64,000 nt of DNA from Escherichia phage Av-05: the sequence record KM190144. One strand, 5' to 3'. How positions within the stretch are numbered: the stretch's first letter is position 1; each line of letters begins with the position of its first letter. The notes beneath the pieces are model-generated. The model had not been told where the DNA came from. It saw only the letters and a program-made list of their open reading frames with translations, and did not search any database. Positions 36,044-52,514 of the stretch are shown here, one piece after another. The position numbers were made by a program, and so were the translations under genes.

Positions 36044-36052
36044 TAGCAAAAT

Positions 36053-36077
36053 AAAAGGGAGCTAAAAGCTCCCTTTT
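36053..36077. terminator. Bidirectional Rho-independent terminator between convergent blocks
   Basis: GGGAGC-TAAAA-GCTCCC hairpin flanked by AAAA and TTTT. Confidence 0.6.
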
Positions 36078-36096
36078 ATATTAACAAATGCTACTT

Positions 36097-37269
36097 TTAG
36101 AAAGGAATATCTTCATCGTAGTCAAACTCAGGTGCTGGCGACTCCATATTCGGAATATCGCTGTTAGCACTGTTCAAAGGTTCCTTAGCATCCTGTTTGT
36201 TCTCTTGTTGTGTCTTCCCATCACCTTTAGATAAGAACTCGTAAAAAGGCTCTGACAGCGTTAGGTAAACATCTTTAGCGGCATTAAGAATGCCATCTTC
36301 TGTTAGTTTATCGATTTGATGATACAAAGCACAAGCTACTAAGATAGCATTACCCGCACTAGCACCCACCGCATTAGATTCCACATCTTTTCCTGTTCTC
36401 TCTGCCACAAAAGCCTTCATAGCTACTGTAGCGTTGTGAACCATCTTCGCGGCAGAGAGACGATCCTCGATCTTAAAACCAGCTTTAATGAGTTCCTTCA
36501 CACCGTTGATGCCGTGCCCACAAGCAACACCTAAAGCATCATAGCCGCCAGATGACTTCTTAGTCTGCCCAGCAGGACCGTAGGCTTTAAATCCACTTAA
36601 GACCGTACCATCACTTAGGTTAACAATCGCAGTGACACGACCACCTACTGCAACTTGCGACAATTGCTCATCTGTGAGGACAAGGTTTCCTTGACCATTC
36701 TTCTCATCATTAACTGTCACCACATTGCCAACGATTGCAGCAATCTCACCATAAATTTTAGTGCCTTTAACTTGGGCATTTGCAGGTGATTGGGTCGAAG
36801 ATTGCTGGCGAGGAGCACTTTGACCAACTTTGCTTTCATCAAGAATGCTGAAGGTCTTTCCGTTTAAAGTGCCGTTTGTATACGTTTTATCCACACTCTT
36901 AGTAATTTTGAGAGGGAAAGAAACAACCATCCCCGCCACAATATCTTTGTATCCAGAATCAAATTTCACCTGAATTTTGTCTGCATGGCTTGGGTGAAGT
37001 TTTTTCTCACCCATAGAAATCCACTCACCTTGGCTCTGTGGGTCAATAACGTTGTTATTATCGTCAACCTCTTGCATCAGGAAACTGATTGAGTGCGTGG
37101 CCTCAATAACTTTAGCTGGTTGCCCATTGCGAGCAGGGATATGGGTACGCCGGATACCATCTGCGTCAGCGTTTTTCACTGGACGAATATTAACATACTT
37201 GATAAAACCTTTCGCAAAATAATCAACTTTTCCGTTGATTGGGTTTTTAAATTCATTGATTACGCTCAT
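36097..37269 (-). CDS. Putative ssDNA-binding protein with SSB-like acidic C-terminal tail
   Basis: Ends PEFDYDEDIPF (bacterial SSB tails end DDDIPF); AAGGAG RBS before ATG 37269. Confidence 0.4.
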   Translation of the reverse strand: MSVINEFKNPINGKVDYFAKGFIKYVNIRPVKNADADGIRRTHIPARNGQPAKVIEATHSISFLMQEVDDNNNVIDPQSQGEWISMGEKKLHPSHADKIQVKFDSGYKDIVAGMVVSFPLKITKSVDKTYTNGTLNGKTFSILDESKVGQSAPRQQSSTQSPANAQVKGTKIYGEIAAIVGNVVTVNDEKNGQGNLVLTDEQLSQVAVGGRVTAIVNLSDGTVLSGFKAYGPAGQTKKSSGGYDALGVACGHGINGVKELIKAGFKIEDRLSAAKMVHNATVAMKAFVAERTGKDVESNAVGASAGNAILVACALYHQIDKLTEDGILNAAKDVYLTLSEPFYEFLSKGDGKTQQENKQDAKEPLNSANSDIPNMESPAPEFDYDEDIPF

Positions 37270-37282
37270 TCTCTCTCCTTTA

Positions 37283-37624
37283 TTACTTAACGCCTTCAGC
37301 AGTTTCGTTTCCAACGCTCAACATCTTATCTACCACTAAATCTTCAACTTGATTTAGCAGGTTCAATGCAAAAGTGGAAGCAGTATTTAATTTCAACAAA
37401 TTGTTGCGGTGTCCTCGGATCCATGAAATTGCATCCTCTACCGTTTTATAGTTACCACTTTGGATGAGCTTTAGCATCTCTTCTCGAATTTCTTTCGACC
37501 CGATTACTGTTCCCATCTGGTGGCTGGCGCTGGACAAGTATACAATTGTTCCAAACTGCCCTTCATCAAGATCAAGAAAACGGATATCTTCTTTGCTTTC
37601 AGGTGTTTGTTTTTCTTCAGACAT
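37283..37624 (-). CDS. Hypothetical protein
   Basis: ORF in track, 113 aa. Confidence 0.4.
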   Translation of the reverse strand: MSEEKQTPESKEDIRFLDLDEGQFGTIVYLSSASHQMGTVIGSKEIREEMLKLIQSGNYKTVEDAISWIRGHRNNLLKLNTASTFALNLLNQVEDLVVDKMLSVGNETAEGVK

Positions 37625-37680
37625 GTCTATTCCTTACAAGGTTGGTGAGTATTACATCTTACACTATGCGTGTATGTATG

Positions 37681-37872
37681 TCAAGATGATTTTTTGTCTT
37701 TTTCTTGGAGAAAAGACAGGACAAATGCTGTAACCGCTATAATCAAAGGTGGCATGACAACAATTGCCCATGGTAGGTATAGAGGGGCAAGAACTAACCA
37801 CCAAGACCAGTCTATAATCTCACACAACTTCAACGCTATGAAGAGAATGCTTAACGCAGATAAAAATCTCAT
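37681..37872 (-). CDS. Small membrane protein
   Basis: 63 aa, two hydrophobic helices. Confidence 0.4.
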   Translation of the reverse strand: MRFLSALSILFIALKLCEIIDWSWWLVLAPLYLPWAIVVMPPLIIAVTAFVLSFLQEKDKKSS

Positions 37873-37879
37873 AGAGACC

Positions 37880-38161
37880 TCAAGAGAAAAACTCTTCTAT
37901 AACTTCCCAAACCCTTTCCGAATCCCCTCCTGAAAGGATACTCCAAATAACCATATCTTGATAGCCTTTCTTACACACATCCACTTGTCGAAATGCTTTA
38001 TGGAAACCCTCTGGACAACTATATTCCACAGGGAGCATATCCACATTATCTTCGAAATATTTAAGTAGCAATTCCTCTTCTAAAGAGGGATTGTTGCGAA
38101 GTTTCTCTTTGAGATTCTCAACAAGTTGTGCACCTGTTAACTTTTTGTTTGTCATGTCCAA
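37880..38161 (-). CDS. Hypothetical protein
   Basis: ORF in track, 93 aa. Confidence 0.4.
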   Translation of the reverse strand: MDMTNKKLTGAQLVENLKEKLRNNPSLEEELLLKYFEDNVDMLPVEYSCPEGFHKAFRQVDVCKKGYQDMVIWSILSGGDSERVWEVIEEFFS

Positions 38162-38508
38162 TCTCCATTTTTAATTTCTAGTACATCCACGCTCTCTGTT
38201 GGTACAAAACCAACAACAGGCTTCATACATTTCTCTTTTACATTGTCGAAAACATACATTTCATCCAATGCTTTTTGTGTTGTGCACGATTCCCAGTTTT
38301 TTGTGTACTCTTTGTAGCCATCCTCGTAAAGGAGAAAGTAGTTAATAGTTGTTGCCCCAAGAATAACGAACATAACAAAAGAGACAACAACGTGTTTCCA
38401 TGTTCCTTTGTACGATAAAATGAAAGCCCAAATAGAACACAACACATAAAACGATAAAGCAGGGAACCAGTTATTATGCACCTGGACCCACTCTAAAAAA
38501 GACATCAT
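38152..38508 (-). CDS. Membrane protein
   Basis: 118 aa, N-terminal hydrophobic helices. Confidence 0.4.
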   Translation of the reverse strand: MMSFLEWVQVHNNWFPALSFYVLCSIWAFILSYKGTWKHVVVSFVMFVILGATTINYFLLYEDGYKEYTKNWESCTTQKALDEMYVFDNVKEKCMKPVVGFVPTESVDVLEIKNGDWT

Positions 38509-38512
38509 GTTT

Positions 38513-38806
38513 CTATCCTTTATTCATATATCTCTTCCAGTCAGAAACAATGTTAGATGCAAGCTGATAAGTTCCGTTGGCATGCCCATCAGCTTTTGCA
38601 GCCGCTTTTACATATGGTAGGGCTTGTTCGAGAGCATCCACAATCAAGGGACACATTGCAATAGCCAAAGCTAGGTTCCCGTTTTCAGCGGTACAGATTG
38701 GGGAGTAGCTCTCTATTCCGTTTCCGTATTTCTCAAGACTACCTTTAACAATAACTTGGTTTTCACCGAACAAATCCTCGTGATGTTCCCACATTTCTTT
38801 GGTCAT
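38513..38806 (-). CDS. Hypothetical protein
   Basis: ORF in track, 97 aa. Confidence 0.4.
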   Translation of the reverse strand: MTKEMWEHHEDLFGENQVIVKGSLEKYGNGIESYSPICTAENGNLALAIAMCPLIVDALEQALPYVKAAAKADGHANGTYQLASNIVSDWKRYMNKG

Positions 38807-39028
38807 CTAGTTGTTCCTCAATTTTGCCATTGCATTATTAAATATTTTTTCGAGTTTCCTGTATTTAATCTTTTGTTTTATGCTTAACTTTTTTCTCTCT
38901 CCGGCAACCATTGCGCCATAATACTTAAATAAAACAACACGTCTATTGCTTACTTTTAATACTTGGGATTCCCTTTTCCTTGGCAGGAGAAGGATTTTAG
39001 CTTTGCGATTTTTCAACTTTACCTCCAA
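38807..39028 (-). CDS. Small basic protein
   Basis: 73 aa, K/R-rich. Confidence 0.35.
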   Translation of the reverse strand: MEVKLKNRKAKILLLPRKRESQVLKVSNRRVVLFKYYGAMVAGERKKLSIKQKIKYRKLEKIFNNAMAKLRNN

Positions 39029-39539
39029 TCATCTTATCCAGTTTTCGCCACATATCCCACACACCACCATTACCTATTGTGTTTTTCGATGGAGTCACAC
39101 AGGCGATAAATTCCAGATCAGTGCCCTTATTCATAAGATATTCAGATACCAACCCTGAAGCGATCAGTTTTATATTTTCAAGGTCTTCTTCAAGCTCCTG
39201 AATACGAGCCTGTGCTTTTTCAATTTCTTCCTTATGTCTTTTGTATTCTTGAAAAGCGTGCCAAGATTGTCCTTTATGAACACTTTCACAAATGGCCTCT
39301 ACTTGCTCTTTTGAGAGCACAGTGAGTGGTTGAGATGGGAAAATCATTATTTGTCCACTATCCCAATCGAATCCTGCATGTATAGATTGAACATCAACCG
39401 AAGGTGTTGCTCCAACAGTGCCTGGGGAATGAATAACGATTGTTACTTTAGTGTCTGGATCCAGATATTGTTTTCCACGTAGAGATGCTATGTGATTAAC
39501 CAAGTCTGTAAATTTTGAAAATTTCATGTAAAACCTCAA
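38997..39539 (-). CDS. Hypothetical protein
   Basis: ORF in track, 180 aa, C-terminal coiled-coil-like segment. Confidence 0.4.
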   Translation of the reverse strand: MRFYMKFSKFTDLVNHIASLRGKQYLDPDTKVTIVIHSPGTVGATPSVDVQSIHAGFDWDSGQIMIFPSQPLTVLSKEQVEAICESVHKGQSWHAFQEYKRHKEEIEKAQARIQELEEDLENIKLIASGLVSEYLMNKGTDLEFIACVTPSKNTIGNGGVWDMWRKLDKMIGGKVEKSQS

Positions 39540-39946
39540 TATGCAAAATAAACTGTTGCCACGCCGTTATAGTGGTCAAACGATACGGCGTTTACTTCAT
39601 AGCTGGCCGGGAGCTTCGAGCCGAGAACGTATCTGGGCCACGTATTCCATGGAGTTTCTATACCCTTACCATTTTTATATACGACACATCCAAGCGAACC
39701 TACAACCTCCCCAGAACGTTTGCCACATGTTACGAAACCTATATTTTTGTTGCTGTCATTAATAACTATTTGGTCATACCTGACTGATGCATTAGCAGCA
39801 CGCTGTGCCAGTTGAGTTGCGATATTCGTAGAGTTCGCAGCAGCCACAGTAGCCATGGTCGCGGCGGTAGATGCCATAATAGCCGTTGAAGCCTGCACCT
39901 GTTGGGTAATTGTCAGCAATGCCGCTGCAAAAATGATCTTCTTCAC
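39536..39946 (-). CDS. Secreted (signal-peptide) early protein
   Basis: MKKIIFAAALLTITQQVQA signal peptide with AxA-type cleavage site. Confidence 0.45.
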   Translation of the reverse strand: MKKIIFAAALLTITQQVQASTAIMASTAATMATVAAANSTNIATQLAQRAANASVRYDQIVINDSNKNIGFVTCGKRSGEVVGSLGCVVYKNGKGIETPWNTWPRYVLGSKLPASYEVNAVSFDHYNGVATVYFAY

Positions 39947-40011
39947 TTGTTATCTCCTTGATGAAGCTGGGCAACTAACCTATCACAGATATGCCAAATA
40001 TTTGTTAATGT

Positions 40012-40266
40012 TCATGCGGCATCGCTATGGTAGATAAAGTCTTCTTTGAACTGTTTGTATGTTAAGCAGTGCTCTAAATAACCCTCGTTAATTTTAATCA
40101 AAGGGAAGTCAGTAATCAAGACATGATTTAAACCAACGGCAGTAACAAGGTATTTCTGCTCTGGATCCCAAGACAATTTAGACTTGTACAAACAACCTTG
40201 TCTAATTTTAAAATCTTCCATATACCCACCCTTCGCAGTTGTGATCACGACATCCTTCAAAATCAT
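40012..40266 (-). CDS. Hypothetical protein
   Basis: ORF in track, 84 aa. Confidence 0.35.
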   Translation of the reverse strand: MILKDVVITTAKGGYMEDFKIRQGCLYKSKLSWDPEQKYLVTAVGLNHVLITDFPLIKINEGYLEHCLTYKQFKEDFIYHSDAA

Positions 40267-40981
40267 AAGGATTGTACTGCCAGGTTATTTTTCCGCAGTG
40301 CGGACAATTCCAGCGCACCTTCCCGCTTCGCGACTTCTTTCTTCTGTTCTGCTTTTTCAACCAGTCAGGCATGACCAAACCTGCGCCCTGAACCATTGTT
40401 CTGCGGTTAAAGTTATTGATATTGAACGTCAGGCGCTTTGCTGAATCAGCAATGGAAAATGGCAACCAAACTATTCCTGGTTCGTTTTTGTTGGCGACGC
40501 TAAAGATGGTCGCTTTACTGAAGTCATCTGTTGGCAATCCACCGTGTTGAAGCCAGTAAACATCGTTGCCGTTCCAGCTACCTTTTTTGTAGGCCACATA
40601 CGCAGTGCAATCTGGCTCAATCAGGTTTTCTGTAGGGATGTACTGGCAATCAACGTGCCACACAGCCATTGCATCAACGCTATCAGCGCAAACAGGCCGA
40701 TCGATATCTCGACCACAATTCCAGGCTTTTTGGGCTTCTTCCAGCGTGTAAACATGGGCGCGATCGATATCAGAACTGTAACCATTACCGTTATGGCAAT
40801 GGAATGAGGCGTTATTACCTACAGTTTCACGCAAGCACATCATGTAAAAACGATTTTTACACATCTTTAGCAACCACCTGTAGACAAGTGAGTAAACCCA
40901 TGATAAAAGCACCAATATGCCCAGCAAAAAGCAGCCCTTTATGAACAGGTAGCCCCGCCATAACCAACGCCACAGGAACAC
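40208..40981 (-). CDS. Cys-rich hypothetical protein (true start uncertain)
   Basis: C-terminal CPHCGKITWQ...CRDHNCEGW zinc-binding-like cluster; N-terminal part of track ORF may be non-coding. Confidence 0.35.
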   Translation of the reverse strand: MFLWRWLWRGYLFIKGCFLLGILVLLSWVYSLVYRWLLKMCKNRFYMMCLRETVGNNASFHCHNGNGYSSDIDRAHVYTLEEAQKAWNCGRDIDRPVCADSVDAMAVWHVDCQYIPTENLIEPDCTAYVAYKKGSWNGNDVYWLQHGGLPTDDFSKATIFSVANKNEPGIVWLPFSIADSAKRLTFNINNFNRRTMVQGAGLVMPDWLKKQNRRKKSRSGKVRWNCPHCGKITWQYNPYDFEGCRDHNCEGWVYGRF

Positions 40982-41195
40982 TTACAAGTGTGAACAGGAA
41001 TGCCCATAATAATTCTTTCATTATTTTCTCTTATGTTTTGACTTTCTACGTATCTTAGCTGCTCGTCGTGCCGCTGCAATACCTGTACGGCGTTTCGAGG
41101 TTGTGATGCCGTTGCCACCCTTCTCTGGCTCTAGAGTGCCTGTGGCATCCAAAAACGGATCGGATATGGTAATAAACTACATAATGCCACACGCA

Positions 41196-41654
41196 TTACT
41201 CACCTCCTTTGCGAAGCTCTGCGGCGAAATATACGGCTGCGGAAACAATAGCTGCATGTAGGTTTTCACCATCAGAAAATAAAGGATCCCCCTTAAGTGC
41301 ATTGACGATACTCTGATGATTTTTTGCCAACATCTCCACCCCCTGCGCCCGTACTTCAGCCAAGAAAGCATCTGTTGCCGGAGTTTCAGGAATCAGTCTC
41401 CTCATCAGTCCTATTGCATGATTGAACCCGAAATCTTCAGCAAGAGATACGTCATCCATATTGTCATTGTCGTCCTCAATATCCCGTGGTTCTGGAATTG
41501 CAGACTTTATTGCCGCATTCTCCGCAGCCAGCGCCGCAAGATTAGCTTCCAGTTCTGAGATTTTCTTTTTGTCATGGTATTTCTCTTCTAAAAGAGTTGC
41601 ACATTTAGCACCAAGGCGTTTGATTTCATCAATGTACACCGATTTCTCAGTCAT
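41196..41654 (-). CDS. Hypothetical protein
   Basis: ORF in track, 152 aa, coiled-coil-like. Confidence 0.4.
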   Translation of the reverse strand: MTEKSVYIDEIKRLGAKCATLLEEKYHDKKKISELEANLAALAAENAAIKSAIPEPRDIEDDNDNMDDVSLAEDFGFNHAIGLMRRLIPETPATDAFLAEVRAQGVEMLAKNHQSIVNALKGDPLFSDGENLHAAIVSAAVYFAAELRKGGE

Positions 41655-41874
41655 GGCTAATTACCTCTCCCTTCAACAACTTGACATTAATTTTGAGTTC
41701 TGCAATTTGACACATAGCGTCAATATTTGTGTCTTCTAACTTCTTAATTTCATCAAGAAGTGCCAGCACAAGCTGGGGCGTGACCATAGCACGGTAGTCA
41801 GTTATTTCTTGATGAGTACCACCATCTTTTGCTATCTCTGCTAACTTACGTAATTCTTGGTAGTCAATTTTCAT
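41647..41874 (-). CDS. Hypothetical protein
   Basis: Track ORF 41647-41994 trimmed to internal Met MKIDYQELRK to avoid overlap. Confidence 0.35.
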   Translation of the reverse strand: MKIDYQELRKLAEIAKDGGTHQEITDYRAMVTPQLVLALLDEIKKLEDTNIDAMCQIAELKINVKLLKGEVISHD

Positions 41875-42250
41875 AACTTGATAAGTCCTGTGTTGTTTTA
41901 TTGACTGCATTATATGCCTCTTTGAGCACCCAGTCAACAGCATCTTTCCATGCTCCGGTTTCGACGGGTGGATTCTCACGCTTAACCTGCTCATAGAAGC
42001 GCACTGCTTTAATCAATCCTTCTAAGGTTACAGGTGTGGTGTATAACGCCTGAATTTCGTAGTTTGGTCTGTCGTTACAATCTTCTTTTGTTGGGACATA
42101 TTTCCAGTCACCAGTCCACAGATTTCCCTGTTTTACATAACGATAGCGCCAAGCAACTGGTTGTTGGGTTGCTGTTTTAAGGCTTGGTGACGAAGGTGGG
42201 AGCGAAACATTAGCCATTTCCGAGATGACAGGTTGATAACCATTGCTCAT
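41864..42250 (-). CDS. Hypothetical protein
   Basis: ORF in track, 128 aa. Confidence 0.4.
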   Translation of the reverse strand: MSNGYQPVISEMANVSLPPSSPSLKTATQQPVAWRYRYVKQGNLWTGDWKYVPTKEDCNDRPNYEIQALYTTPVTLEGLIKAVRFYEQVKRENPPVETGAWKDAVDWVLKEAYNAVNKTTQDLSSYEN

Positions 42251-42425
42251 CTAAATCTCCTCCTGCCTCATATGCCACTTGTAACCAATACATAAATGTT
42301 TCAATAGAAACACAACCACAATCCACATCAATCTGGTCATGTTGTTGTTCCAACCACTGCTGAAAACGTGATTTTTGAGTGTCATTCTCTGGCTGTTCTT
42401 TTATCATTATCACCCCCATCGGCAA
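42210..42425 (-). CDS. Hypothetical protein
   Basis: ORF in track, 71 aa. Confidence 0.35.
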   Translation of the reverse strand: MPMGVIMIKEQPENDTQKSRFQQWLEQQHDQIDVDCGCVSIETFMYWLQVAYEAGGDLDEQWLSTCHLGNG

Positions 42426-42489
42426 ACTGAGTACACTGCAAAGGCTACAGCCATTACAACCCCTACCGTTGTGAATGCTTCAGGCCAAG

Positions 42490-43152
42490 TCATTGATTCA
42501 TCCCCTTCTTCTTGAGCATGGCGGCACGGCAAGCGTTCCAGCCATCAACATAATCAAACGTATTACTATCGTCTGGCTCGATTTCATCCGGTACTGCCAA
42601 TGTCGGCTGGGCGGCAACATTGGCAAAGGCTGCACGCAACCCTGTCTTAATTTCCTCTACCTCATCAGCGCCTAGCGATGAATCTGACAGTGCATGATGG
42701 AATGCGTATGCCATGTCGTCGTTTACTGTTATCGGTTCCACTTTCTGTACTGTAAGTGTTGGCGGCACATGATACAACGGGATTACACGACGCGGGTCTG
42801 TGCCTTTACCTGGTGGGTACGGCATTATCCAGCCTAAACCAATCTGATCAACATCCCGCAACTCCTCTTCGTCCGTCCATCCCACCGGTTCTGCTCTCAA
42901 CTCCACCTGTGCATTAGGGGAGGTGTAGAGCGGGATTCCTTTCCTCCCACCAGAAAATTCATTGCGAGCGTTATACTCACGACCATCTGCGTCCTCACAC
43001 ATCCATGCTACAGGCTTTGTCTCCAGCACTGCCAAAGCAATCCGTGCCAGTTCTTGCGCTTCTTCTGCTGGCAGTACAACGTTGCTACCAAGTCCGTATG
43101 TTTCACGCCACTGCTTGATTGTCAGAAGGCGTTCTTTGGTAAGAATACTCAT
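42490..43152 (-). CDS. Hypothetical protein
   Basis: ORF in track, 220 aa. Confidence 0.4.
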   Translation of the reverse strand: MSILTKERLLTIKQWRETYGLGSNVVLPAEEAQELARIALAVLETKPVAWMCEDADGREYNARNEFSGGRKGIPLYTSPNAQVELRAEPVGWTDEEELRDVDQIGLGWIMPYPPGKGTDPRRVIPLYHVPPTLTVQKVEPITVNDDMAYAFHHALSDSSLGADEVEEIKTGLRAAFANVAAQPTLAVPDEIEPDDSNTFDYVDGWNACRAAMLKKKGMNQ

Positions 43153-43154
43153 AT

Positions 43155-43418
43155 CTATTTCACCTTAATCTCAACATTTCTCACATCTAGCTCTACGGGG
43201 AGTTCTGCCTTTCCAGTCAGTGCTAATGCAAGATTTTCTGGAGTAATAATGACAGTTATTGTTTTTCCTCTCTCCAGACGAATAGCCATTCTTATCTTGT
43301 CATCATCATCACCTGTGTTAGGTCGAGTAATTGATATTTGTCCGTTCATATATTTATCCTCTGTTATTAACATGCCAATCCTTAACAAATGGTTATGTGA
43401 ATGAAAGAAAGCAGCCAA
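43155..43418 (-). CDS. Hypothetical protein
   Basis: ORF in track, 87 aa. Confidence 0.4.
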   Translation of the reverse strand: MAAFFHSHNHLLRIGMLITEDKYMNGQISITRPNTGDDDDKIRMAIRLERGKTITVIITPENLALALTGKAELPVELDVRNVEIKVK

Positions 43419-43525
43419 AGAATTGACTCAATAGCTGCCCAACCAATAACTGCACAAACAACACCAAGAAACAAGAAAAAACCAGGACCTGGCAAATTAT
43501 TGAACATCCTCACTCCCCTTTGTTA

Positions 43526-43831
43526 TTAGCACGCTGTAAAAGCAAGTGGTGAAGTGTACACTTCAATTTTTCCGTTATCAATAGGCCATTCTCCATCTTT
43601 GATATAGTCGCTTGTACCATCGACTCGCTGCTCTGCGATATGGAAAGCACCAATCGGTTTTGCTTCTAATGCATTTAATGCGATCTTGGCAATCTCCAAA
43701 TCAAGAGATACCATATCAAAAATCTTCTTATACTCATCCCCAGCCTCACCAACACGCTGTTGGAGGTCTTTCAGATGGTCAACATTAGAGCGCACATGCT
43801 TAAGTAGCTTCTCTTTTGTAAATCTTTTCAT
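43526..43831 (-). CDS. Hypothetical protein
   Basis: ORF in track, 101 aa. Confidence 0.4.
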   Translation of the reverse strand: MKRFTKEKLLKHVRSNVDHLKDLQQRVGEAGDEYKKIFDMVSLDLEIAKIALNALEAKPIGAFHIAEQRVDGTSDYIKDGEWPIDNGKIEVYTSPLAFTAC

Positions 43832-43839
43832 AAGTCACC

Positions 43840-44103
43840 TTATCCTGCTGTACTTGCCACTACCGAGGGAAATGTAATACTCTCTTCAAACAAAGCGCCA
43901 AGGTTTTCAACAGCCATGCAAAAATCAAATGCCGTCCCAGAGTCCAGTGCCTTAAAAATTTCATCTTCACGGCGTAAATCGTACAGATAAATATGCCTAT
44001 CCCCTATGGTATAAAAACCTATCCTTTTTGGGGATGGGTAACGATCAATGATGCTTTGAAGGTCTCTTAACCACTTCTTTTCTTCTTTTGTCAGTTTTGG
44101 CAT
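43840..44103 (-). CDS. Hypothetical protein
   Basis: ORF in track, 87 aa. Confidence 0.4.
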   Translation of the reverse strand: MPKLTKEEKKWLRDLQSIIDRYPSPKRIGFYTIGDRHIYLYDLRREDEIFKALDSGTAFDFCMAVENLGALFEESITFPSVVASTAG

Positions 44104-44105
44104 AG

Positions 44106-44597
44106 TTACTCTTCCCTTTTGAATAATACATCCCGTAATACAGGAACGCTTTTATCCATACTTGCTTCAAGTTGCTTACTGTCCGCACTTGCCCATGCAT
44201 ACACAACCATTTTAGCAACGTCGCTCAAAGTTTCATACTTATTTCTTAAAGCTCCTTGCTCCTTCTTGAAAAAATCTATATTGTCTTGTACCCATTGCAA
44301 GCGTTCTTTGTTCTCATGGCAAGTATTTTTAAACATTTCTCTACTATAGGGACTTGTCTGGTTAAAAGGCAATCTTTTATCTAGCCCCGCCTTTTCGAAA
44401 TCATCATGCAGCATGTCTAGTAGGTCATCTCTGTAGCCGGACAAATGATTCACATTACACCAATCATATAAATTAGCACACAAACCGCAGTCACGAGAGA
44501 AAATATCAGAGTCTGGTGCTCCTCTTTTTACCCAAGCATCGTAAGAAAGGTAAAAACTTTGTAATAAGACATGTAGCTTTGTAATATCAAAATTCAT
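44106..44597 (-). CDS. Hypothetical protein
   Basis: ORF in track, 163 aa. Confidence 0.4.
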   Translation of the reverse strand: MNFDITKLHVLLQSFYLSYDAWVKRGAPDSDIFSRDCGLCANLYDWCNVNHLSGYRDDLLDMLHDDFEKAGLDKRLPFNQTSPYSREMFKNTCHENKERLQWVQDNIDFFKKEQGALRNKYETLSDVAKMVVYAWASADSKQLEASMDKSVPVLRDVLFKREE

Positions 44598-45055
44598 TGC
44601 TCGAAATCTCCATTGCGAAGTTGCTCTGCATAAAGAAGGGCTTGTTTTCCCGCATAGATGATGCTTTCTTCTTGCTCCTGCTCTCCGATACGGATTGTGA
44701 GCATACCGTACATATGAACACCTTGAGCCATCATCTCTGTGGAGAACTTCTTTGTGGCTTCCAAACTGGGCATCAAAGGTGACTGATCTGCTGGGGTATA
44801 TGCATCAGAGATATCAGATTGTTCCCCATCAAAAACATAACAACTCTCACGAATGAACTTCTTTAGGAGTGCATTTTCTGATGCTACGTCAATGAACATA
44901 CCCTCCAGTTTCTTGTAGTCATCGTAAGAAACCATGTCTGTACAGAAGGAACTCCCTTGTACAGGGGGTGATAAATAGTCACTTGGTATTGCATGTATCT
45001 TTACATTTCTCATAGAAATTCTCCACAAAGTGTCAGGTAGTGAAATGATACACAA
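44594..45055 (-). CDS. Hypothetical protein
   Basis: ORF in track, 153 aa. Confidence 0.4.
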   Translation of the reverse strand: MCIISLPDTLWRISMRNVKIHAIPSDYLSPPVQGSSFCTDMVSYDDYKKLEGMFIDVASENALLKKFIRESCYVFDGEQSDISDAYTPADQSPLMPSLEATKKFSTEMMAQGVHMYGMLTIRIGEQEQEESIIYAGKQALLYAEQLRNGDFEQ

Positions 45056-45079
45056 ACAGATTGCCTATAGCAAGTGTTC

Positions 45080-45451
45080 TTAATTAGCCAATTCAGCATC
45101 CAACGACATTATATACTCAGGTAGCTTTCGAATGTTCTCATACAGCACAATCTCTCCGTGTGTCAATGGCCTGATTTCTTTATCCACACCAACATTATTA
45201 TGGTAATCCCAATCTGCATCGACATGGACGAAGACCAGCGTTCCTCTATTGCCAGTCTTAGCGGCCTTTCTTACGATAATCTCTCCGTCTATTGAAGGTA
45301 GGCATCTTTTAAAGAACTTGTTTAAAAGTTTTTGTTGAATTGCTTCTGCCAAGATCATTTTGTCTTGGCTATCTATGATTCTTTTAATTTCAGAGTTGTT
45401 TACTTCAACATCAATAAGTTGTGTTGTTGTCTGGGTTCCTTTTACTTTCAT
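45080..45451 (-). CDS. Hypothetical protein
   Basis: Track ORF 45080-45544 trimmed to Met MKVKGTQ (45451) so it does not overlap the HNH gene. Confidence 0.35.
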   Translation of the reverse strand: MKVKGTQTTTQLIDVEVNNSEIKRIIDSQDKMILAEAIQQKLLNKFFKRCLPSIDGEIIVRKAAKTGNRGTLVFVHVDADWDYHNNVGVDKEIRPLTHGEIVLYENIRKLPEYIMSLDAELAN

Positions 45452-45461
45452 TATTTTTACC

Positions 45462-46100
45462 TTACTCTGATATAGGGTCTGTTTTTGATCTTCTTTTCTG
45501 GACTTTCTTGGGTCTTCCTGTGATATGTGACCATGAGTATCCATTATTTAAAGAAGATATTGTATTTCTGGAAACTCCGAATAGTTCCGCAATAGCTTTG
45601 TGTGTTATCCCACAATCAATAAGCCGTACAATCTCTAAAACTTTCTCCTTTGTAAGGACAGATAAATGATAATCATCACCAAATTTTTGGATTCTCCCCA
45701 TACTATAAGCCACTGTATTGTTATGGCTATAGGTACACCACTCAAGATTTTCAACTCTATTATTATGTCTGTTACCATCTATGTGGTTTATAATTGGAAC
45801 TCCTAGCACAGTTTTTCTGCATTCTTTCTGCAATTCTGGAGAAGGAGGCTCTTTAAAAGCCTCCGCTACAAGTCTATGGACTGAAAAACTTTTCCCTGAA
45901 TCTTTACCCCTTTTGTACAAGCACACGCTCGGATAGCATTGTGGAGATAAATTTTCACTTTTAGTTTTTAAATATTTCCACATTCCTGATTTAAAAGATC
46001 TTACATTTCCATAATTACTTACTTGATAATCAGGATACCCTACAATATCCTTCCAAATTTCCTCTACTTCATCAGTGGGAATCTGCCCATGTGTATCCAC
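45462..46100 (-). CDS. Free-standing HNH homing endonuclease (NUMOD4-like N-terminus)
   Basis: GYPDYQVSNYGNVRS motif and NHIDGNRHNNRVENLEW HNH motif; GTG start overlaps 3' end of polymerase exon 3. Confidence 0.65.
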   Translation of the reverse strand: MDTHGQIPTDEVEEIWKDIVGYPDYQVSNYGNVRSFKSGMWKYLKTKSENLSPQCYPSVCLYKRGKDSGKSFSVHRLVAEAFKEPPSPELQKECRKTVLGVPIINHIDGNRHNNRVENLEWCTYSHNNTVAYSMGRIQKFGDDYHLSVLTKEKVLEIVRLIDCGITHKAIAELFGVSRNTISSLNNGYSWSHITGRPKKVQKRRSKTDPISE

Positions 46101-46371
46101 AAAGATATTCTCCTGTAATTAAAACGGGAAGCCCCATTATCTTAGACGCTTTTTCTACACATTTTGTTGCAAGCTCTCCTACTGGGCAATGCAGTATCCT
46201 GTATTTCCCATACACATCAGGTTCAACAATAACTTTACCTGCTTTCACATAATGTCCGTCGAAACGATGGCCTTTTTCAAGCATCATATCTACATAGCTT
46301 TGTGCAGCCTCTAAGTTAGAATGCTCCGTTATTGATTTAAATCTTTCCGGTACTTGTACCTGTATCTCATC
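46072..46371 (-). CDS. DNA polymerase (family A), exon 3
   Basis: Begins DEIQV (completes motif C as ...YYH|DEIQV) and ends GLPVLITGEYLCGYTWADSH, like Pol I/T7 pol C-terminus. Confidence 0.6.
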   Translation of the reverse strand, partial: DEIQVQVPERFKSITEHSNLEAAQSYVDMMLEKGHRFDGHYVKAGKVIVEPDVYGKYRILHCPVGELATKCVEKASKIMGLPVLITGEYLCGYTWADSH

Positions 46372-47214
46372 CACTAGTTCAAGGAGTTCGCTACTCTCCC
46401 CCGCACCGTTACGTGCATAGCCACAAGATTTCTCCTGTGGGTCAGACTATATCATAACCCTTTTTCAAGGGTTCCTCCCGTTTGGACCGCGCTTGCTGGC
46501 CTACTCTACTCGCTTCTTCACATCAGATGAAGCTGATGCTATGCTTTCGATAGTCGTTGAACGTCACTTACCAAGTATAGTCTTTAGAGATATGCACCCA
46601 CAATCTCCGTTGTTTAATTCCTTTTACGGATGGGTAGGGGTATCCGAGATCTCTAATCTCGCATTGCCTTAGCCCTGACTGTAGCAATTCACAAATCTCT
46701 CTCACATCTTTTTCTGTGAGAATGGCATTCGCATTGTTTTCACCAATAGGTATAACACGTAATCCTGTATCGTAAGCATGTTTTATATTGCTGCCATGTG
46801 TCCCCCACTCAAGATTCCACGCTGCGTTATTAAGTTTGTTTCCATCTTTATGATTAACGCTGGTGAATCTTTCTGGATCTGGATTAGGCACAAAACATTC
46901 TGCCACCATCCGATGTATGGCTTTCGTACAGGACTTACCGTCTATCCTTATAATTGTACACAGATATCCCCTCCCATTATCAAATACCTGCAAGGGAAGT
47001 TTATCTCTTTTTGAAAGAGGCGTGGAACCATCTTCAAAAACTGTATACCCATGGTAATCTTTTGCTTTTACCATTTTACTATACCTCTTTAAGTTTTCGC
47101 TGCGGATTGGCATATTGTCCTTATAACACAATACATTATAAGAATCAACTTAGCTTTCCCGACAATTAGAGAGGTTTTCGACATGCATTACTGCATGAAG
47201 CCACAATGTTATTT
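46372..47214 (-). mobile_element. Group-I-intron-like insertion 2 in DNA polymerase gene, with HNH ORF
   Basis: Splits motif C; minus strand has R-like GTTCAACGACTA and S-like ATGATATAGTC elements; 5' exon ends U, insertion ends G. Confidence 0.55.
46568..47131 (-). CDS. Intron-encoded HNH homing endonuclease
   Basis: VNHKDGNKLNNAAWNLEWGTHGSN HNH motif; 187 aa inside insertion 2. Confidence 0.65.
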   Translation of the reverse strand: MCYKDNMPIRSENLKRYSKMVKAKDYHGYTVFEDGSTPLSKRDKLPLQVFDNGRGYLCTIIRIDGKSCTKAIHRMVAECFVPNPDPERFTSVNHKDGNKLNNAAWNLEWGTHGSNIKHAYDTGLRVIPIGENNANAILTEKDVREICELLQSGLRQCEIRDLGYPYPSVKGIKQRRLWVHISKDYTW

Positions 47215-47547
47215 ATGGTAGTAGATAACCCTTCTGACACCCTGGTCGTACCATCCCCGTTTCACCAATTCCCAATGGAACAGGACTCCCATGAGGTCAA
47301 ACAATGAAGCACCACCGTTTTGTTGGTAAGCATTCAGCAGAGAATGTTTAGAACGAGTCCAAATTTTACGCCCATCCATACCTGGAATATAGCGTCTCCC
47401 ATTTGCCTCCCAGAATTTTTCTAACCACTCCCTACGCATTTTCAACCCGAAGTTACTATCCCAGAATGCGTCTATTACAGCCTGTGCTCTATTAAGGGGG
47501 ATACCCAGCATTGCGGCTATCTTAGGAGCTTGTGCTCCATACATGAT
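47215..47547 (-). CDS. DNA polymerase (family A), exon 2
   Basis: IMYGAQAPKIAAMLG...YIPGMDGRKIWTRSKHSLLNAYQQNGGASL parallels T7 gp5 region FLYGAG...IKGLDGRKVHVRSPHAALNTLLQSAG. Confidence 0.6.
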
Positions 47548-48281
47548 CATATTGTTCAACATGGCTCGCTACACCATGCCCGTCCTTTTAGGAACTGCTA
47601 CATATTTCTATGCAGATCAGACTATATCTTCATCCTTTTCAGGATGCCCACCGCTTCGGCAGTCTGAAAGACTGGAGGTTTCCCTCACCGCTTGGCCCTA
47701 CGCCTTTCGGCTAGTCGTTGAAGTTTCGAATGCTTCCCAACATTTATGTTCTATTTGATGGCATTTTTTACAAAGTAATTCAAAATTACTTATTTCGTTA
47801 TTCGTCCTGTCATGGTCAATATGATGAACGCACCATTCATCTTTACCTGCATAAAGAAGATCTTTATTACATCTATTACAGTATCTTCTCTGTTCCTTTA
47901 TGACAGGGGATAACTTACGAAACATCGATATGCCATTTTTATAAAATTTGGACAATTTCCCACGAGGCTGCCCACCACCTTTTCCTATGCCAACTCTGTC
48001 AAGCCTATTTTCTCTTTCGGCCTTTCTGCGTCTATATTCTCTGGTTTTTATCTTTGAATATTCTCTTCTACAACCTTCAGAGAGACATACTTTTTGATTT
48101 TTACCAGTTTTAACACATTGTTCACCGCAGATTATACAACAAAATGTGCCCATATTCTCCCTCCTTTTGTAAGAGGGAAGCATTCGCTTACCTGCTGATT
48201 ATCTTCGACATAACTCGGTCAGATTTCCCAGCAATTCAATGGGTGCACCTTACAAATTACTTTGTAAGGGGGCTATCATTA
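47548..48281 (-). mobile_element. Group-I-intron-like insertion 1 in DNA polymerase gene, with HNH ORF
   Basis: Splits motif B region; R-like CTTCAACGACTA and S-like GAAGATATAGTC on minus strand; TAATGATAG stops in all frames right after exon 1. Confidence 0.55.
47698..48183 (-). CDS. Intron-encoded HNH endonuclease (Cys-rich zinc-finger N-terminus)
   Basis: CVHHIDHDRTNNEISNFELLCKKCHQIEH HNH motif; GGAGGGAG RBS. Confidence 0.65.
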   Translation of the reverse strand: MLPSYKRRENMGTFCCIICGEQCVKTGKNQKVCLSEGCRREYSKIKTREYRRRKAERENRLDRVGIGKGGGQPRGKLSKFYKNGISMFRKLSPVIKEQRRYCNRCNKDLLYAGKDEWCVHHIDHDRTNNEISNFELLCKKCHQIEHKCWEAFETSTTSRKA

Positions 48282-50318
48282 ACCATACGTAATCCCCTTT
48301 CCTCCAGAGCGTGTTACCTCCTTTCCTGCTGCTATTGTGTATGCTCTTGCGTTTCGTTCATGGGCATCCTCTTCCATCATGATACGTAAATACTCACCAC
48401 CATCAAACTCAAAAGCCCCTGCTGCAGCAATCATACCTTCTAAGTTAGACCCGTCACAACCCATCAGGTAGTAGCCTTCAGGGACTGTCCAAAGACCCCG
48501 CATTTCTTTTCCCAACAAAACCTTCGGATCAGGCTTGGGCATGTTTGCGCAAACAGTGTGCTTGCACCTGCCCGTGTTAGTGATTCCAGAAAAACGTGCT
48601 GGAAGTTTTCCGTCAATGTCTAAACGAGGGTGATTTAATAACCCTGTATCCGTCTTGTCCTCATCCATTGGGTCTAAAACAGATCGCCTGTTACGAAGTG
48701 ATAACCACTTAACAATCTGTTTTGCCATATGCACATCAATTTTCTCCAGATTTGGACACAGATGCCCAAAATTATCTTTTAGTTGAGGAGATGTCGGTAA
48801 CTGGCGTGCCTTACGCCGAAATTTCTTAAATATCTCTGAATAACCTCTTTCAGATGCATGTCGATGGTCAAACTTACGCTCTGAAATGTTGAATTTCTCA
48901 TCTGAATCATTAAGGTAGTCAAGAATAAGAGATTTATACTCAGACTCAGCCAACTCTTCTATGTACTTCTTAACTAGTACATCAATTTCAGAATCTTCTC
49001 TGGCCTTTTTAAATTGATCCTTCGTAACGTCCTTTACACGCCACAGTGTAGGTTTCCAACCAGCATCTTTGATCAGATATTTTTTAATGTCATCTTGATT
49101 GGAGATTTTCATTGGAACCATTAAATCTGGCATTTTTCTGTTTCGAAGGTCTTCTTTAGCCTTCTCTAGAAGATCCGGCGGCAAAGGTTCGAGTGTGTTC
49201 TCTTTGGTTCGCTGGGAACGAATGAAATTACCGTATAAAGCCGGATCTTCAATGCCATTCTGGATGCAATATCTCTCCCCTGCTGCACTTACATCCCCAT
49301 TACTCTTAAAAGCTGTTTTTGGTGGGGCTTTAAACTCTAGAGCTTCTCTGTTAACAGGATAACCAAGTTTATATTCCAACCAATTCCACCCATGATAAGA
49401 TATATTACCCGCTGTGTCAAAAGGGTTAGCTGGGAATTTTGGTTGTTGGGATTTCGTCATCTCTTTTTTTGGAAGAAGTGGTTCTACCTCTTCTTCAATC
49501 TCCCGCATCATCTTATCTATGCGGTCTCTTAATTTTTCTGCCTCCTCTCGATTAAAGTATACACCCTGTATTTCTTGCTCTATCATCAAATAGTCTGTGA
49601 GCATTCTCCTACGTAATGCATTTTTCCAATTAATCTGGTGCATCCCGTGAGGTTTATCAGCATACATGAACTGCTTGTCATCAGGCCATCGCGTACCATT
49701 TGACTCGTCAATAAGAGCTTTCCACACAAGTTCGTTAATGATAACGTCTTCCCACACACGGTTTACATATTCCCACAATGGTTGATTACGCCAATCATCA
49801 ATCTGTACTTTCTTGTTTGCCACACGATAACCCCATGCCAATAAGCCGTGTGGCCCAACCCTATCACGTTTTCCTGTTACAGGGTTTAATACAGAGTCTG
49901 GGCAGCCATTAGGCAATGGGCGATCTGGGTAAAGAACACGACTCATTGAAAGAGTGTCGTAAAGATTTACCTGTTTATTACCTATCGTCCCCATACATTT
50001 TGGGTCTTTGAACATATCATATTCAATCCCAGAAAGTTTTTTCCACAGACGTAAATCATAGCCAAACAGGTTATGTATTGCTATCCCTCTTGGTTCGGTC
50101 TGTAACCAAGAGTAAAAATCATCATAAGAAAGGATTCGTAAATTAACACCTTCTTTGCTGCGTGCAAAATTAACTGCACTCTGGTATTCCTTGTGAGCAG
50201 GATCGAGAAACAACACCCAGTTATTTACAGCATATTCTTTAAAAAGTGTGCAGTGATATTTAGTTGCCTCTTCTAATAATCCGTCAGCCTCTGTATCGGC
50301 TAAAAAAAGTCCTTTCAT
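48282..50318 (-). CDS. DNA polymerase (family A, T7-like), exon 1 (3'-5' exo plus N-terminal polymerase part)
   Basis: Exo I motif FLADTEADGL; motif A region CDGSNLE; ends ...RSGGKGITYG; AGGAGG RBS before ATG 50318 (track start 50360 upstream of RBS). Confidence 0.65.
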
Positions 50319-50513
50319 ACTCCTCCTATTCAAGATGGGCTTGACTGTATCGTCGCCCATCTCTTAGTTGGTTATAGATTATGTGGAAAACTACCTATTT
50401 TTGATTTATGTTTCTTTGCCAAAGGGCTTCTCTTGGCGGGAATGTATCCCTCAAGCCCCTTGGCAACACGAATAGCTAACTCATCATATTTTACATGTAT
50501 CCTCTTTTTTCTC

Positions 50514-52514
50514 TCAAAATGGAGAATCGCTATCTAAATCTTCAGGTTGCTCAATCACAACAGCAGGTTCTTGTTGAGGAACAGAAACAGCAATTTTCCC
50601 CACAGGTGTTTCAAGTTCCAGACTTTGAATCATTGATTTAGGTCTTAGCATTACCTCCCCATTAAGTTTAAACATACCATCTTCCCACACCCAACCAGAT
50701 GCATCAGAAAACTGACCATTATCATCCATAATCAGAGTATCCGCTATGCCTAATTTTTTGTGTGGACGGTTTTTCAAAACAACACTACGAATACGCCCAC
50801 GAGATCGGTCAGGGAGTTCTTCAGGCTCGACACCTAAGACAACCCACGATAACTGTTCGAGTGCTGCACTTCCCCTTAAAGATTCTTTTCTCACCGGATA
50901 CCAGAAAGGTAACAAATTACCTTCTTTATCTTTCGGAATTTGTATATCAACACGCTTCATATGACTGATACTGAGGATAAACACGTCATATTTTTTGCAG
51001 AAGGCAGCCAATTCCGTCATGATGTTATCTAAATCTCTTCTCTCGTTATCAGATTTTAATCCTGATATCACCATCGACAAGTGATCTAAAATAATCCACC
51101 TACACCCGTCAAGGAAAACCATCTGTTTCAATTTTTGTAGTAATTGGTCAGTCGGTATTGAACCAAAGTGATCAAAAATTTTAACCTTATCTTCGGCAAT
51201 CCACCGTTGGTGTATAGCTAAGTGCTGCTCATCGGTAAGAAATTGCTCTGGATCTGCAACAAATGCTTTCGGGTCAATTTTTAACTCCTCAGCATATAGA
51301 CTGTTTACAGACTCCTCTTCATCCTCCTCTAGACGGATAATTGCAATTTTCTCGTTCTCTTTCCAACCGTCCAGTCGGGGAATATCCATGTTACGGAGGT
51401 ACTCGATAATTGCATACTCAATCTTTCTTGAGAAAGTTGATTTCCCAGCTCCAGATGGGCCTGTCAGTGTCCACAATTCTCCTGTTCGTGGGCCTCTTGT
51501 TAGTTCATACAAACGAGGAAAGCACGGCAACGGAACGCCATCTTTTTTCTTTTTACGGAGATTTTCAATAGATATTCTCTCCAACCCAATCAATTTGTCT
51601 GGAACATATTTATCCTGCGCTTTAGCAAACATGTTCCAGATATCCATCCACTTACCTTTTTTGTAAATATCCCGGATATCTTTAACACCATTTGGGTCAT
51701 TGCGTTCATTTGGGTATCGTGCAACGTAGATATTGTCAGACAGTAAAAAACCTGCGACATCATCTGTAGCTTCCTTGCCTTTCTTAATTCTGTGTTCTTT
51801 TTCCCTTGCTGTGGCTTCATCATTGTCTAAACCAAGGACAATCTTTTCATATTCCCTGATAAACTTTTCGTTGTGGGCAAATGTATCTACCGCATTGGCT
51901 GTTCCACAGTTCAACCCGATAAAAGGTAATGTCGGGCAATTAGAAACCTCCTCACCATCCTGAATGGCTTTGATACCTTTTAAAGCATTGTTTGCCCACT
52001 CACGTACTGAACGTGACGTATTAGGATTACTATGAAGAAATTTAATATACTCAAACCCAGCTTGCCAGCCAGCCGTTACATCGCCTTCCCCCTCAACAAT
52101 AAAGATCTGTTTTTTACCAGATCCCATAGAGGCCTCATGTTGACCAAAAAATTGAGAGGAAGCCTTTACTGTGCCAACAACAGAGAAATGCCCCTTTTTC
52201 TCTTTCGGAACAGTCCAGTCTCGTTTCTTGTACCCTGTCAATTTCCCATATTTGTCATAATATGGAAGATATGTTGCCACTACTGTAGTACCGTCTTTCA
52301 AATCTGTTGCAGATCTGATCTTGAAGTACTTAGCTGCATCTAAACTAATATCCATTTGGGGGACAGCCAAGATCCTTGTACTATCCAGGACAGACTCTAC
52401 AGTTTCTTCTTCTTTTTTCTGATAATTCACTTTACCACCACTTTTTGTAGGTCGGAATGCTTTTGGGTTCTCACCTTCAAAGTATGCACCAGCCCCCCAT
52501 TTTGTAATCTTCAT
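50514..52514 (-). CDS. Primase-helicase (TOPRIM primase fused to DnaB-like helicase, T7 gp4-like)
   Basis: TOPRIM IFIVEGEGD and LGLDNDEAT; Walker A LTGPSGAGKST; Walker B WIILDHLS; acidic C-terminus ending DSDSPF. Confidence 0.7.
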   Translation of the reverse strand: MKITKWGAGAYFEGENPKAFRPTKSGGKVNYQKKEEETVESVLDSTRILAVPQMDISLDAAKYFKIRSATDLKDGTTVVATYLPYYDKYGKLTGYKKRDWTVPKEKKGHFSVVGTVKASSQFFGQHEASMGSGKKQIFIVEGEGDVTAGWQAGFEYIKFLHSNPNTSRSVREWANNALKGIKAIQDGEEVSNCPTLPFIGLNCGTANAVDTFAHNEKFIREYEKIVLGLDNDEATAREKEHRIKKGKEATDDVAGFLLSDNIYVARYPNERNDPNGVKDIRDIYKKGKWMDIWNMFAKAQDKYVPDKLIGLERISIENLRKKKKDGVPLPCFPRLYELTRGPRTGELWTLTGPSGAGKSTFSRKIEYAIIEYLRNMDIPRLDGWKENEKIAIIRLEEDEEESVNSLYAEELKIDPKAFVADPEQFLTDEQHLAIHQRWIAEDKVKIFDHFGSIPTDQLLQKLKQMVFLDGCRWIILDHLSMVISGLKSDNERRDLDNIMTELAAFCKKYDVFILSISHMKRVDIQIPKDKEGNLLPFWYPVRKESLRGSAALEQLSWVVLGVEPEELPDRSRGRIRSVVLKNRPHKKLGIADTLIMDDNGQFSDASGWVWEDGMFKLNGEVMLRPKSMIQSLELETPVGKIAVSVPQQEPAVVIEQPEDLDSDSPF

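Follow-up and report, generated by a model that had tools for sequence, protein, structure and literature searches.

In the stretch of Escherichia phage Av-05 DNA analysed here (sequence record KM190144; 64,000 nucleotides (nt), hereafter the window), two products of the minus-strand replication cluster, a protein resembling an SSB (a binding protein for single-stranded DNA) and a primase-helicase, end in acidic tails closed by Pro-Phe, and a DNA polymerase of the phage T7 type is encoded between them. We regard this set as a variant of the T7-style tail-docking replisome, a view that is partly supported: the SSB-like protein would be the phage's own SSB, and it and the helicase would dock through their tails in T7 style, with host SSB partners also possible as receptors. 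We put the probability of this combined statement at roughly 55%. The two genes and the helicase tail lie as follows.

36097..37269, minus strand: SSB-like protein gene, 390 amino acids (aa), phrog_4477 family, orthologue of Bas52_0087
50514..52514, minus strand: T7 gp4-like primase-helicase, 666 aa, TOPRIM region plus DnaB/RecA-type helicase, without the N-terminal Cys4 zinc ribbon
50517..50642, minus strand: C-terminal linker and acidic tip of the helicase, ...PQQEPAVVIEQPEDLDSDSPF

Two acidic tails ending in Pro-Phe

Both tails read exactly as an earlier note on this DNA had given them, ...EFDYDEDIPF (...SPAPEFDYDEDIPF) for the SSB-like protein and ...EDLDSDSPF (...IEQPEDLDSDSPF) for the primase-helicase; the respective tail peptides are PAPEFDYDEDIPF and EQPEDLDSDSPF. 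When the window's open reading frames (ORFs; minimum length 60 aa) were scanned for at least four Asp/Glu and no Lys/Arg in the last 10 residues together with a terminal Phe, only these two of 219 were found. In the complete relative TH18 (133.9 kb, 594 ORFs), which also served for the genome-wide SSB check described below, a looser filter of at least three Asp/Glu added NrdB only (...EEEIWDF); the C-terminal tail of the small ribonucleotide reductase (RNR) subunit is itself a docking tail.

The tips are retained widely. Among the 120 best helicase homologues, 102 end in PF and two more carry PF followed by an extension, and PF ends 142 of the 181 SSB-like homologues. In a subset pre-selected for PF, the right-anchored pairwise identity of the last six residues was 0.51 for the helicase and 0.69 for the SSB-like protein, and that of the 30 residues before them was 0.10 and 0.12, respectively. 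Helicase homologues down to about 47% identity show the variants DSDSPF, DNDTPF, DDDTPF, MDGSPF, DDETPF, DEDCPF, DKDPPF and DGDEPF behind a linker that is unalignable; among more distant ones the final residues are -EY or -SF, or the motif is missing. These sequence comparisons support selection on both tails. Because the tips are conserved while the linkers drift, a shared docking function is well supported, with the phage polymerase or host SSB partners as putative receptors. If both acidic Phe ends were instead functionless accidents of composition, for which the shortness of the motif is the only argument, neither their rarity among the window ORFs nor their retention despite a linker identity of about 10% would be expected, and we consider this hardly credible.

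As to the type of the tips, the T7 sequence confirmed that gp2.5 and gp4 carry acidic tails with a terminal Phe (...EEADEDGDF and ...STDWSNDTDF, respectively). Judged by sequence, both window tips are acidic-x-Pro-Phe, that is, of the type of the bacterial SSB C-terminus (SSB-Ct) and not of the T7 Asp-Phe type. The proposal of a T7-style signature therefore stands for the helicase and polymerase, which are closest to gp4 and gp5, and for the acidic, Phe-ending character of the tails, and fails for the class of the tips. The likeness of the DIPF tip to bacterial SSB, also proposed earlier, was borne out: the only matches of the phrog_4477 profile below E 0.1 in the PDB were the last 26 residues (153-178) of the E. 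coli-type SSB chains 1eqq and 7f2n (E 0.007-0.009). Canonical E. coli-type phage SSBs end in NEPPMDFDDDIPF.

Position -3 is I/L/V in the SSB-like family versus T/S/E in the helicases (compare NDTDF of T7 gp4), and the most frequent helicase tip among the relatives, FDNDTPF (DFDNDTPF), resembles WSNDTDF of gp4. In our reading the helicase tail is that of gp4 in which Pro has taken the place of Asp at -2, the SSB-like tail is a bacterial SSB-Ct, and the common acidic-x-Pro-Phe form would be a case of convergence.

The SSB-like protein

The only match of the SSB-like protein was phrog_4477, a family of "unknown function" (E 2e-155, profile positions 1-393 of 393). Pfam gave no family at E ≤ 0.01, and the PDB no relative of the body by sequence, the only hit being a chance-level jacalin-like match. 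There are 54 close homologues, all of about 390 aa; where their contigs are long, these are of phages and measure 140-150 kb. The alignment of the homologues shows a nearly invariant C-terminus, PPMDFDDDIPF, which is also the consensus of the phrog_4477 family. A profile search of 1.84 billion representatives returned 196 clusters (50% identity) at E ≤ 1e-3. The common form of the family is shorter, about 260-300 aa, with an N-terminal beta domain fused directly to a helical domain and followed by an acidic tail ending in [ILV]PF, and domain mapping indicated that the Vequintavirinae form is this short form plus an extra small inserted domain. About 100 short-form proteins had their best or sole profile match over the four-helix domain and tail; ten of them, when searched, matched phrog_4477 only and no credible Pfam family.

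The body had been called not obviously OB-fold-like. This was overturned by AlphaFold2, which, run with the homologue alignment, gave a confident beta domain (residues 1-145), a five-strand barrel with the classic OB strand order, four helices (residues 245-262, 270-292, 299-314 and 324-347) and a disordered tail (pLDDT < 50 for residues 351-390), that is, two predicted OB domains and a helical domain.

36820..37269, minus strand: OB fold 1 (OB1), residues 1-150; basic, isoelectric point (pI) 9.0, net charge +3
36574..36762, minus strand: OB fold 2 (OB2), residues 170-232; minimal five-strand barrel, acidic, pI 4.6, not in short-form relatives
36226..36540, minus strand: four-helix domain, residues 244-348; shows the widest conservation within the phrog_4477 family
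36100..36225, minus strand: disordered acidic tail, residues 349-390, net charge -8; SSB-Ct-type tip DYDEDIPF at 36100-36123

The structural neighbours of both predicted OB folds are mostly single-stranded DNA (ssDNA) binders (RPA, SSB, LEF-3, RecO, PriB and STN1), and OB1 has conserved K, H, W and Y positions. At the sequence level, the OB1 profile gave only weak matches to cold-shock proteins in the PDB (E 0.14-1). When the window and the complete TH18 genome were searched for a canonical SSB or gp2.5 (phmmer and tblastn; two canonical phage SSBs and T7 gp2.5 as queries, gp32-type SSBs not being searched for), only the tail of the SSB-like protein was returned, at E ≥ 0.04. The protein resembles gp2.5 neither by sequence match nor by a close fold. 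Its body does not belong to PF00436 by sequence; what it has in common with that family is a predicted OB-fold domain and a disordered linker with an acidic tip of the form D-D-D-[IL]-P-F at the C-terminus (DYDEDIPF-stop in the window).

The absence of another SSB from these searches of the window and TH18, the position of the gene in the replication cluster, the nearness of the OB folds to ssDNA binders and the combination of a basic OB1 with an acidic tail together argue that the 36097-37269 product is the phage's own, non-canonical SSB, an assignment that is supported but not proven. On the predicted structure, OB1 is likely the ssDNA-binding domain, and the four-helix domain is a probable oligomerisation module.

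Genetic data exist for an orthologue. Mutants of the BASEL phage Bas52 that escape the DRT10/UG17 defence map to Bas52_0087 (QXV84166.1; D252V and Y351C), which a preprint describes as SSB-like, with two predicted OB folds and an FDDDIPF C-tip; the same preprint states that the dosage of ExoI (SbcB) modulates DRT10 defence and that Bas52_0087 expressed alone is neither toxic nor enough to trigger DRT10 (bioRxiv 10.64898/2026.04.29.721553, April 2026). The orthologous Bas51_0089 and Bas59_0085 share 38% identity with the window protein along the entire sequence, and both have D252 and Y351 in precisely the contexts described for the escape substitutions. In the window protein these residues correspond to D244, invariant in the family, and Y343, located in the first and last helices of the four-helix domain. 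As a factor of the infection phase with links to ssDNA and ExoI biology, Bas52_0087 speaks for the role proposed here. Retron literature that mentions Vequintavirinae had no bearing on the SSB-like protein.

These data also bear on whether the protein is an SSB at all. It could serve as a decoy or scaffold whose only task is to show an SSB tip, for instance in order to disarm host nucleases or defences, with OB folds that bind protein or another ligand. The lack of sequence membership in any SSB family, the versatility of OB folds, the acidic OB2 and the fact that defence triggering is the sole genetic phenotype known would all agree with such a role. Against it speak the basic OB1 with its conserved positions, the dominance of ssDNA binders among the structural neighbours, the location of the gene within the replication cluster, and the fact that no other SSB was found (gp32-type not searched for) in a genome whose T7-like replisome should need one. 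We therefore regard the decoy as improbable and retain the assignment as an SSB.

The primase-helicase

The primase-helicase shows 100% identity to the protein of phage Av-05. It matched DnaB_C (PF03796, E 1e-11) and AAA_25 of Pfam and the primase/helicase family phrog_239, and its best PDB matches were chains of T7 gp4 (E 1e-24), covering residues 190-591. The Walker A sequence GPSGAGKST aligned with GSGMGKST of gp4. Pfam gave no TOPRIM match; EGEGD and LDNDEA, which we take to be the TOPRIM acidic motifs, aligned with EGEID and FDMDEA of gp4. The N-terminal Cys4 zinc-binding domain is absent, since there is no Cys in the first 190 or so residues (51945-52514) and the first one is found near residue 193. 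Without this zinc ribbon the primase activity is uncertain, and either site recognition by the primase must differ from that of T7 gp4A or another protein must prime.

Several relatives (24-2-1, TH18 and others) have a 308-aa insertion in this protein at ...LRG|C...N|SAALEQ, giving a helicase of 975 aa (L001:14071-16998). The site corresponds to a position near 50870 of the window, between G548 and S549 of the helicase, and the window copy lacks the insertion. An extra functional domain was considered and rejected; from the junction residues (...LRG|C...N|S), the insertion is read as an intein.

The polymerase

That a T7-type polymerase is present and has to be spliced, as had been proposed, proved right. 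The gene is split by group I introns into three exons.

48279..50360, minus strand: DNA polymerase exon 1, family A, T7 gp5-like, up to the first half of motif B (...RSGGKGITYG); phrog_17
47209..47562, minus strand: DNA polymerase exon 2, from the second half of motif B as far as ...VIYYH in motif C; phrog_8888 positions 74-185
46072..46374, minus strand: DNA polymerase exon 3, DEIQV... to the C-terminal ...TWADSH; phrog_8888 positions 185-295
46375..48278, minus strand: two group I introns, which flank exon 2 and interrupt motifs B and C

Each intron has one HNH endonuclease ORF (47698-48183 and 46568-47131, by Pfam HNH matches), and RF00028 of Rfam matched at 47598-47801 (E 5e-10), 46961-47224 (E 4e-8) and 46424-46728 (E 0.004), each match narrowly missing the gathering score. 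Conceptual removal of the introns gave a family A polymerase of 903 aa with the motifs DGSNLE, R..GK...YG..YGA and YYHDE, and its best PDB match was T7 gp5 (E 9e-18, versus 4e-12 for Taq).

A homing-endonuclease ORF with NUMOD4, HNH_3 and HTH matches (45462-46100) shares 29 nt with the 3′ end of exon 3. The same 29-nt overlap was observed for endonuclease ORFs that follow the extended SSB-like genes described below in I29, PsgM04F and L017. The next ORF, 45080-45544, repeats the MDTHG start.

Proposed mechanism and alternatives

Sequence, conservation, fold prediction and homology lead us to infer ssDNA binding, oligomerisation and receptors in the following way. The basic N-terminal OB fold would bind ssDNA, with the small second OB fold as an accessory, and the four-helix domain would make the protein oligomerise. 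The disordered tail of about 40 residues would present a bacterial-type SSB tip, acidic residues followed by I-P-F with a free carboxylate, and the primase-helicase tip (acidic-[S/T]-P-F) would be the counterpart of the T7 gp4 tail. By analogy with T7, in which docking of the tails to the polymerase is documented (PMC12339929; PDB 6P7E holds a DTDF peptide), both tails may serve as short linear docking peptides that tether helicase and SSB to the T7-like polymerase, the putative receptor of both; unwinding, ssDNA coating and synthesis would thereby be coupled. Host SSB partners such as ExoI/SbcB may also be engaged by the SSB-like tip and are plausible receptors because this tip is identical to that of the host in most family members; the link between DRT10 and SbcB fits such receptors.

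An overlapping possibility is that the tips mainly hijack the host, recruiting or competing for ExoI/SbcB, RecQ, PriA, Pol III chi, RNase HI or UDG at phage forks, and do not contact the polymerase. In most family members 9-12 residues reproduce the host tail, (E)PPMDFDDDIPF. Both Pro and Phe, which are critical in E. coli SSB (ssb113 = P176S), are kept in the tips, and the Bas52 orthologue triggers DRT10 in a manner tuned by ExoI dosage, according to the preprint. However, the helicase tip is polar at -3, like the T7 gp4 tail that binds gp5, the window tip DYDEDIPF differs from that of the host at two positions, and the reported lack of toxicity of over-expressed Bas52_0087 to E. coli argues against strong sequestration of essential partners. 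We consider predominant host hijacking a possible account, less probable than the combined statement with which it overlaps.

The tails could also act in cis or between the two proteins, either folding back on the DNA-binding surface of their own protein as autoinhibitors or, in the case of the helicase tail, binding the OB fold of the SSB-like protein, with no polymerase contact. Acidic tails are indeed paired with a basic OB1, and autoinhibition by the tail is known for E. coli SSB and T7 gp2.5. In the latter the tail occupies its own DNA-binding groove (PMC12339929). Electrostatic autoinhibition alone would not need an invariant Pro-Phe end across hundreds of homologues, and we judge this explanation unlikely.

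Several points weigh against the docking of both tails on the polymerase by an SSB and a helicase as proposed. The tips differ at position -3 (I/L/V versus S/T/E) and so may use different receptors. OB2 is acidic, the binding of ssDNA by phrog_4477 members is predicted from modelled folds, and the SSB searches left room for an SSB of the gp32 type at another place in the genome. Some relatives extend the SSB-like protein 15 residues past the Phe; SSB-Ct binding needs a free C-terminal carboxylate, which such an extension would remove. Finally, the front basic patch of T7 gp5 that receives the gp2.5 and gp4 tails consists of K587, K589, R590 and R591 (PMC12339929). In the alignment with the window polymerase this patch is represented only by RR, K587 and K589 falling in a gap. 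The RR pair is general to family A polymerases, and the alignment of the patch is thus not evidence either way.

An extension past the tip and its endonuclease neighbours

The extension, AP[IV]GLQY-x4-[IL]H-x-[ILF], follows the Phe in about 15 of the 181 SSB-like and two of the 120 helicase homologues, as in DFDDDIPF-APIGLQYGRNFIHCI and NDTPF-APIGLQYANHAIYVL. It is also found on bona fide OB SSBs, namely in the P22-like phage g341c (...DIPFAPVTLPFPRHAIHAI) and in a Vibrio phage (...DIPFAPVGLQFGKKFMHVI), and hence on three unrelated bodies: canonical SSB, the phrog_4477 SSB-like family and gp4-like helicase. At least 80% of a 26-aa query is covered in 232 phage records, and string searches of the literature for the extension gave nothing relevant. 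With the extension in place, the Phe carboxylate would be buried. In the window copy (36040-36099) both the extension and an endonuclease footprint are absent. The extension loci are as follows.

L002:2527-2581; L003:2034-2081; L004:2034-2081; L012:1528-1575; L013:1525-1572; L014:1525-1572; L015:1534-1581; L017; L018; L019: extension past the tip

When the seven codons of AP[IV]GLQY were compared among ten loci, synonymous changes numbered 2-6 and non-synonymous ones 0-1 in most pairs; exceptions were the divergent copies of g341c and the Vibrio phage. Since the changes are nearly all synonymous, the peptide looks to be under purifying selection, and read-through junk from a lost stop codon was rejected as its origin.

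An endonuclease gene is present at six of the ten extension loci and a footprint at two; g341c and the Vibrio phage have neither. The notion that one specific endonuclease always accompanies the extension is thus only partly true, all the more as two loci have the endonuclease without the extension. At four SSB-like loci the +1 frame holds a Zn-finger endonuclease ORF whose start lies within the extension, three of the four with an HNH motif, and in SSE121 and phi92 just the first 9-11 codons of the +1 endonuclease ORF are left. At both extended helicase loci, an HNH_3 gene different from the Zn-finger/HNH family lies 57 nt downstream. The Zn-finger genes are located as follows; the HNH motif HH.DY..WLC..HH is visible in L012, L016, L017 and L018.

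L012:1547-2041; L013:1544-2167; L016:2602-3027; L017:2732-3175; L018:2663-3091; L009:2736-3314: Zn-finger endonuclease genes directly after the SSB-like gene

Endonuclease-positive alleles without the extension have odd tips (DFDDQIPF in K54_rec3 and EFDDSIPF in Bas51), and the endonuclease-free Bas59 has AFDDDIPF. The odd tips suggest that the endonuclease may home to the conserved tip-coding DNA, the candidate target being that which encodes ...GATGATGATATTCCNTTTTAA. From this one might speculate, and we do so tentatively, that the acidic-x-Pro-Phe tip acts as a portable address label, passed among unrelated replisome genes and shaped by a selfish element.

Genomic surroundings

The region is the minus-strand early/replication gene cluster of a Vequintavirinae (Avunavirus) myovirus, and over 36000-52600 its DNA shares about 95% identity with that of Escherichia phages 24-2-1, 18-1-2 and TH18. 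Along the direction of transcription the order is RNA ligase, GHKL ATPase, PIF1-like helicase, primase-helicase, the three-piece polymerase, about 20 small ORFs and, last, the SSB-like gene. The latter starts at an ATG, as in its homologues, the mechanical ORF beginning at TTG 37314, and is separated from the convergent gene of the tail-fibre region by a putative terminator.

36045..36077, no strand assigned: hairpin-plus-T-run terminator, AAAAGGGAGC-TTTTA-GCTCCCTTTT then ATTTT, read directly from the sequence

A short-form relative of the SSB-like gene sits among RNR, Thy1 and DNA ligase genes. The homologue in SalP219 carries the UniRef name "Tail fiber protein", probably carried over from the adjoining tail-fibre genes.

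Directly upstream of the SSB-like gene, 37283-37624 (minus strand) encodes a 113-aa protein (phrog_7310, no Pfam family). A gene of 99-132 aa occupies the same position, compared by position and not by homology, in SSE121, Bas51, Bas59, phi92, PsgM04F, L005, L017 and L018, and the 113-aa protein may be a functional partner of the SSB-like protein. Among the small ORFs of the block at about 38000-45000 are genes whose annotation in relatives is lambdoid Ea22 or EaA protein (L001:5154-7824). The block also matches Stx-converting prophages by megablast and looks like mosaic exchange with temperate phages.

Implications

If the proposed docking is true, the principle known from T7, where identical tails of SSB and helicase are read by a single polymerase site, extends to the large rV5/phi92/phiTE myovirus group, which includes therapeutic phages and model phages of the BASEL collection. 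The code in this group is the host's own SSB-Ct motif, and one peptide may possibly serve both replisome assembly and the capture of host repair and restart factors. The reading also provides a biochemical hypothesis for phrog_4477, a large family of unknown function (196 clusters) with an orthologue implicated as the DRT10 trigger, and predicts that tip mutations affect both replication and defence sensing. With its endonuclease neighbour, the extension allows the action of a selfish element on a functional linear motif to be put to the test: should the endonuclease home to DDDIPF-stop DNA, a mobile element would spread, mask and diversify a motif for replisome docking and host hijack. Were the tip indeed a portable label, the helicase tip would open the host SSB interactome directly to the phage helicase.

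Comparison with known systems

Bacterial SSB (PF00436) and the SSB-like protein share an OB-fold body (predicted in the window), a low-complexity linker and an acidic tip, the last 9-12 residues being identical in most phrog_4477 members. They differ in that the bodies are not homologous and the SSB-like chain has two OB folds and a separate four-helix domain, whereas bacterial SSB tetramerises through its OB fold; the window tip is DYDEDIPF.

The SSB of phage HK620 likewise has a ...PF tip that serves with a phage-encoded partner: the protein needs its NDYPPF tip to work with Sak4 (PMC5928155). HK620 SSB is, however, a distant SSB homologue that forms a tetramer like E. coli SSB, and its partner is a recombinase, not a replisome component (PMC5928155).

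For the orthologue Bas52_0087, the SSB-like half with the host-type tip is already published at the level of prediction and genetics. The passages of the preprint that were consulted contain no ssDNA-binding assay and make no mention of the matching helicase tip, the family size and short forms, or the post-tip extension (bioRxiv 10.64898/2026.04.29.721553), and no description of the acidic-x-Pro-Phe tip of the helicase was found in the searchable literature. What appears to be new is the tip on the helicase, how large the family is and how it is built, and the association of extension and endonuclease.

Compared with the T7 replisome, the window tips have a penultimate Pro in place of Asp. 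The SSB-like protein, with two OB folds and a helical domain in 390 aa, is unrelated to gp2.5, the helicase lacks the Cys4 zinc ribbon, and in the polymerase, 903 aa long and split by introns, the front basic patch is not recognisably conserved. What the two systems share is a homologous helicase and polymerase, and an SSB or SSB-like protein and a helicase that both carry disordered, acidic tails ending in Phe.

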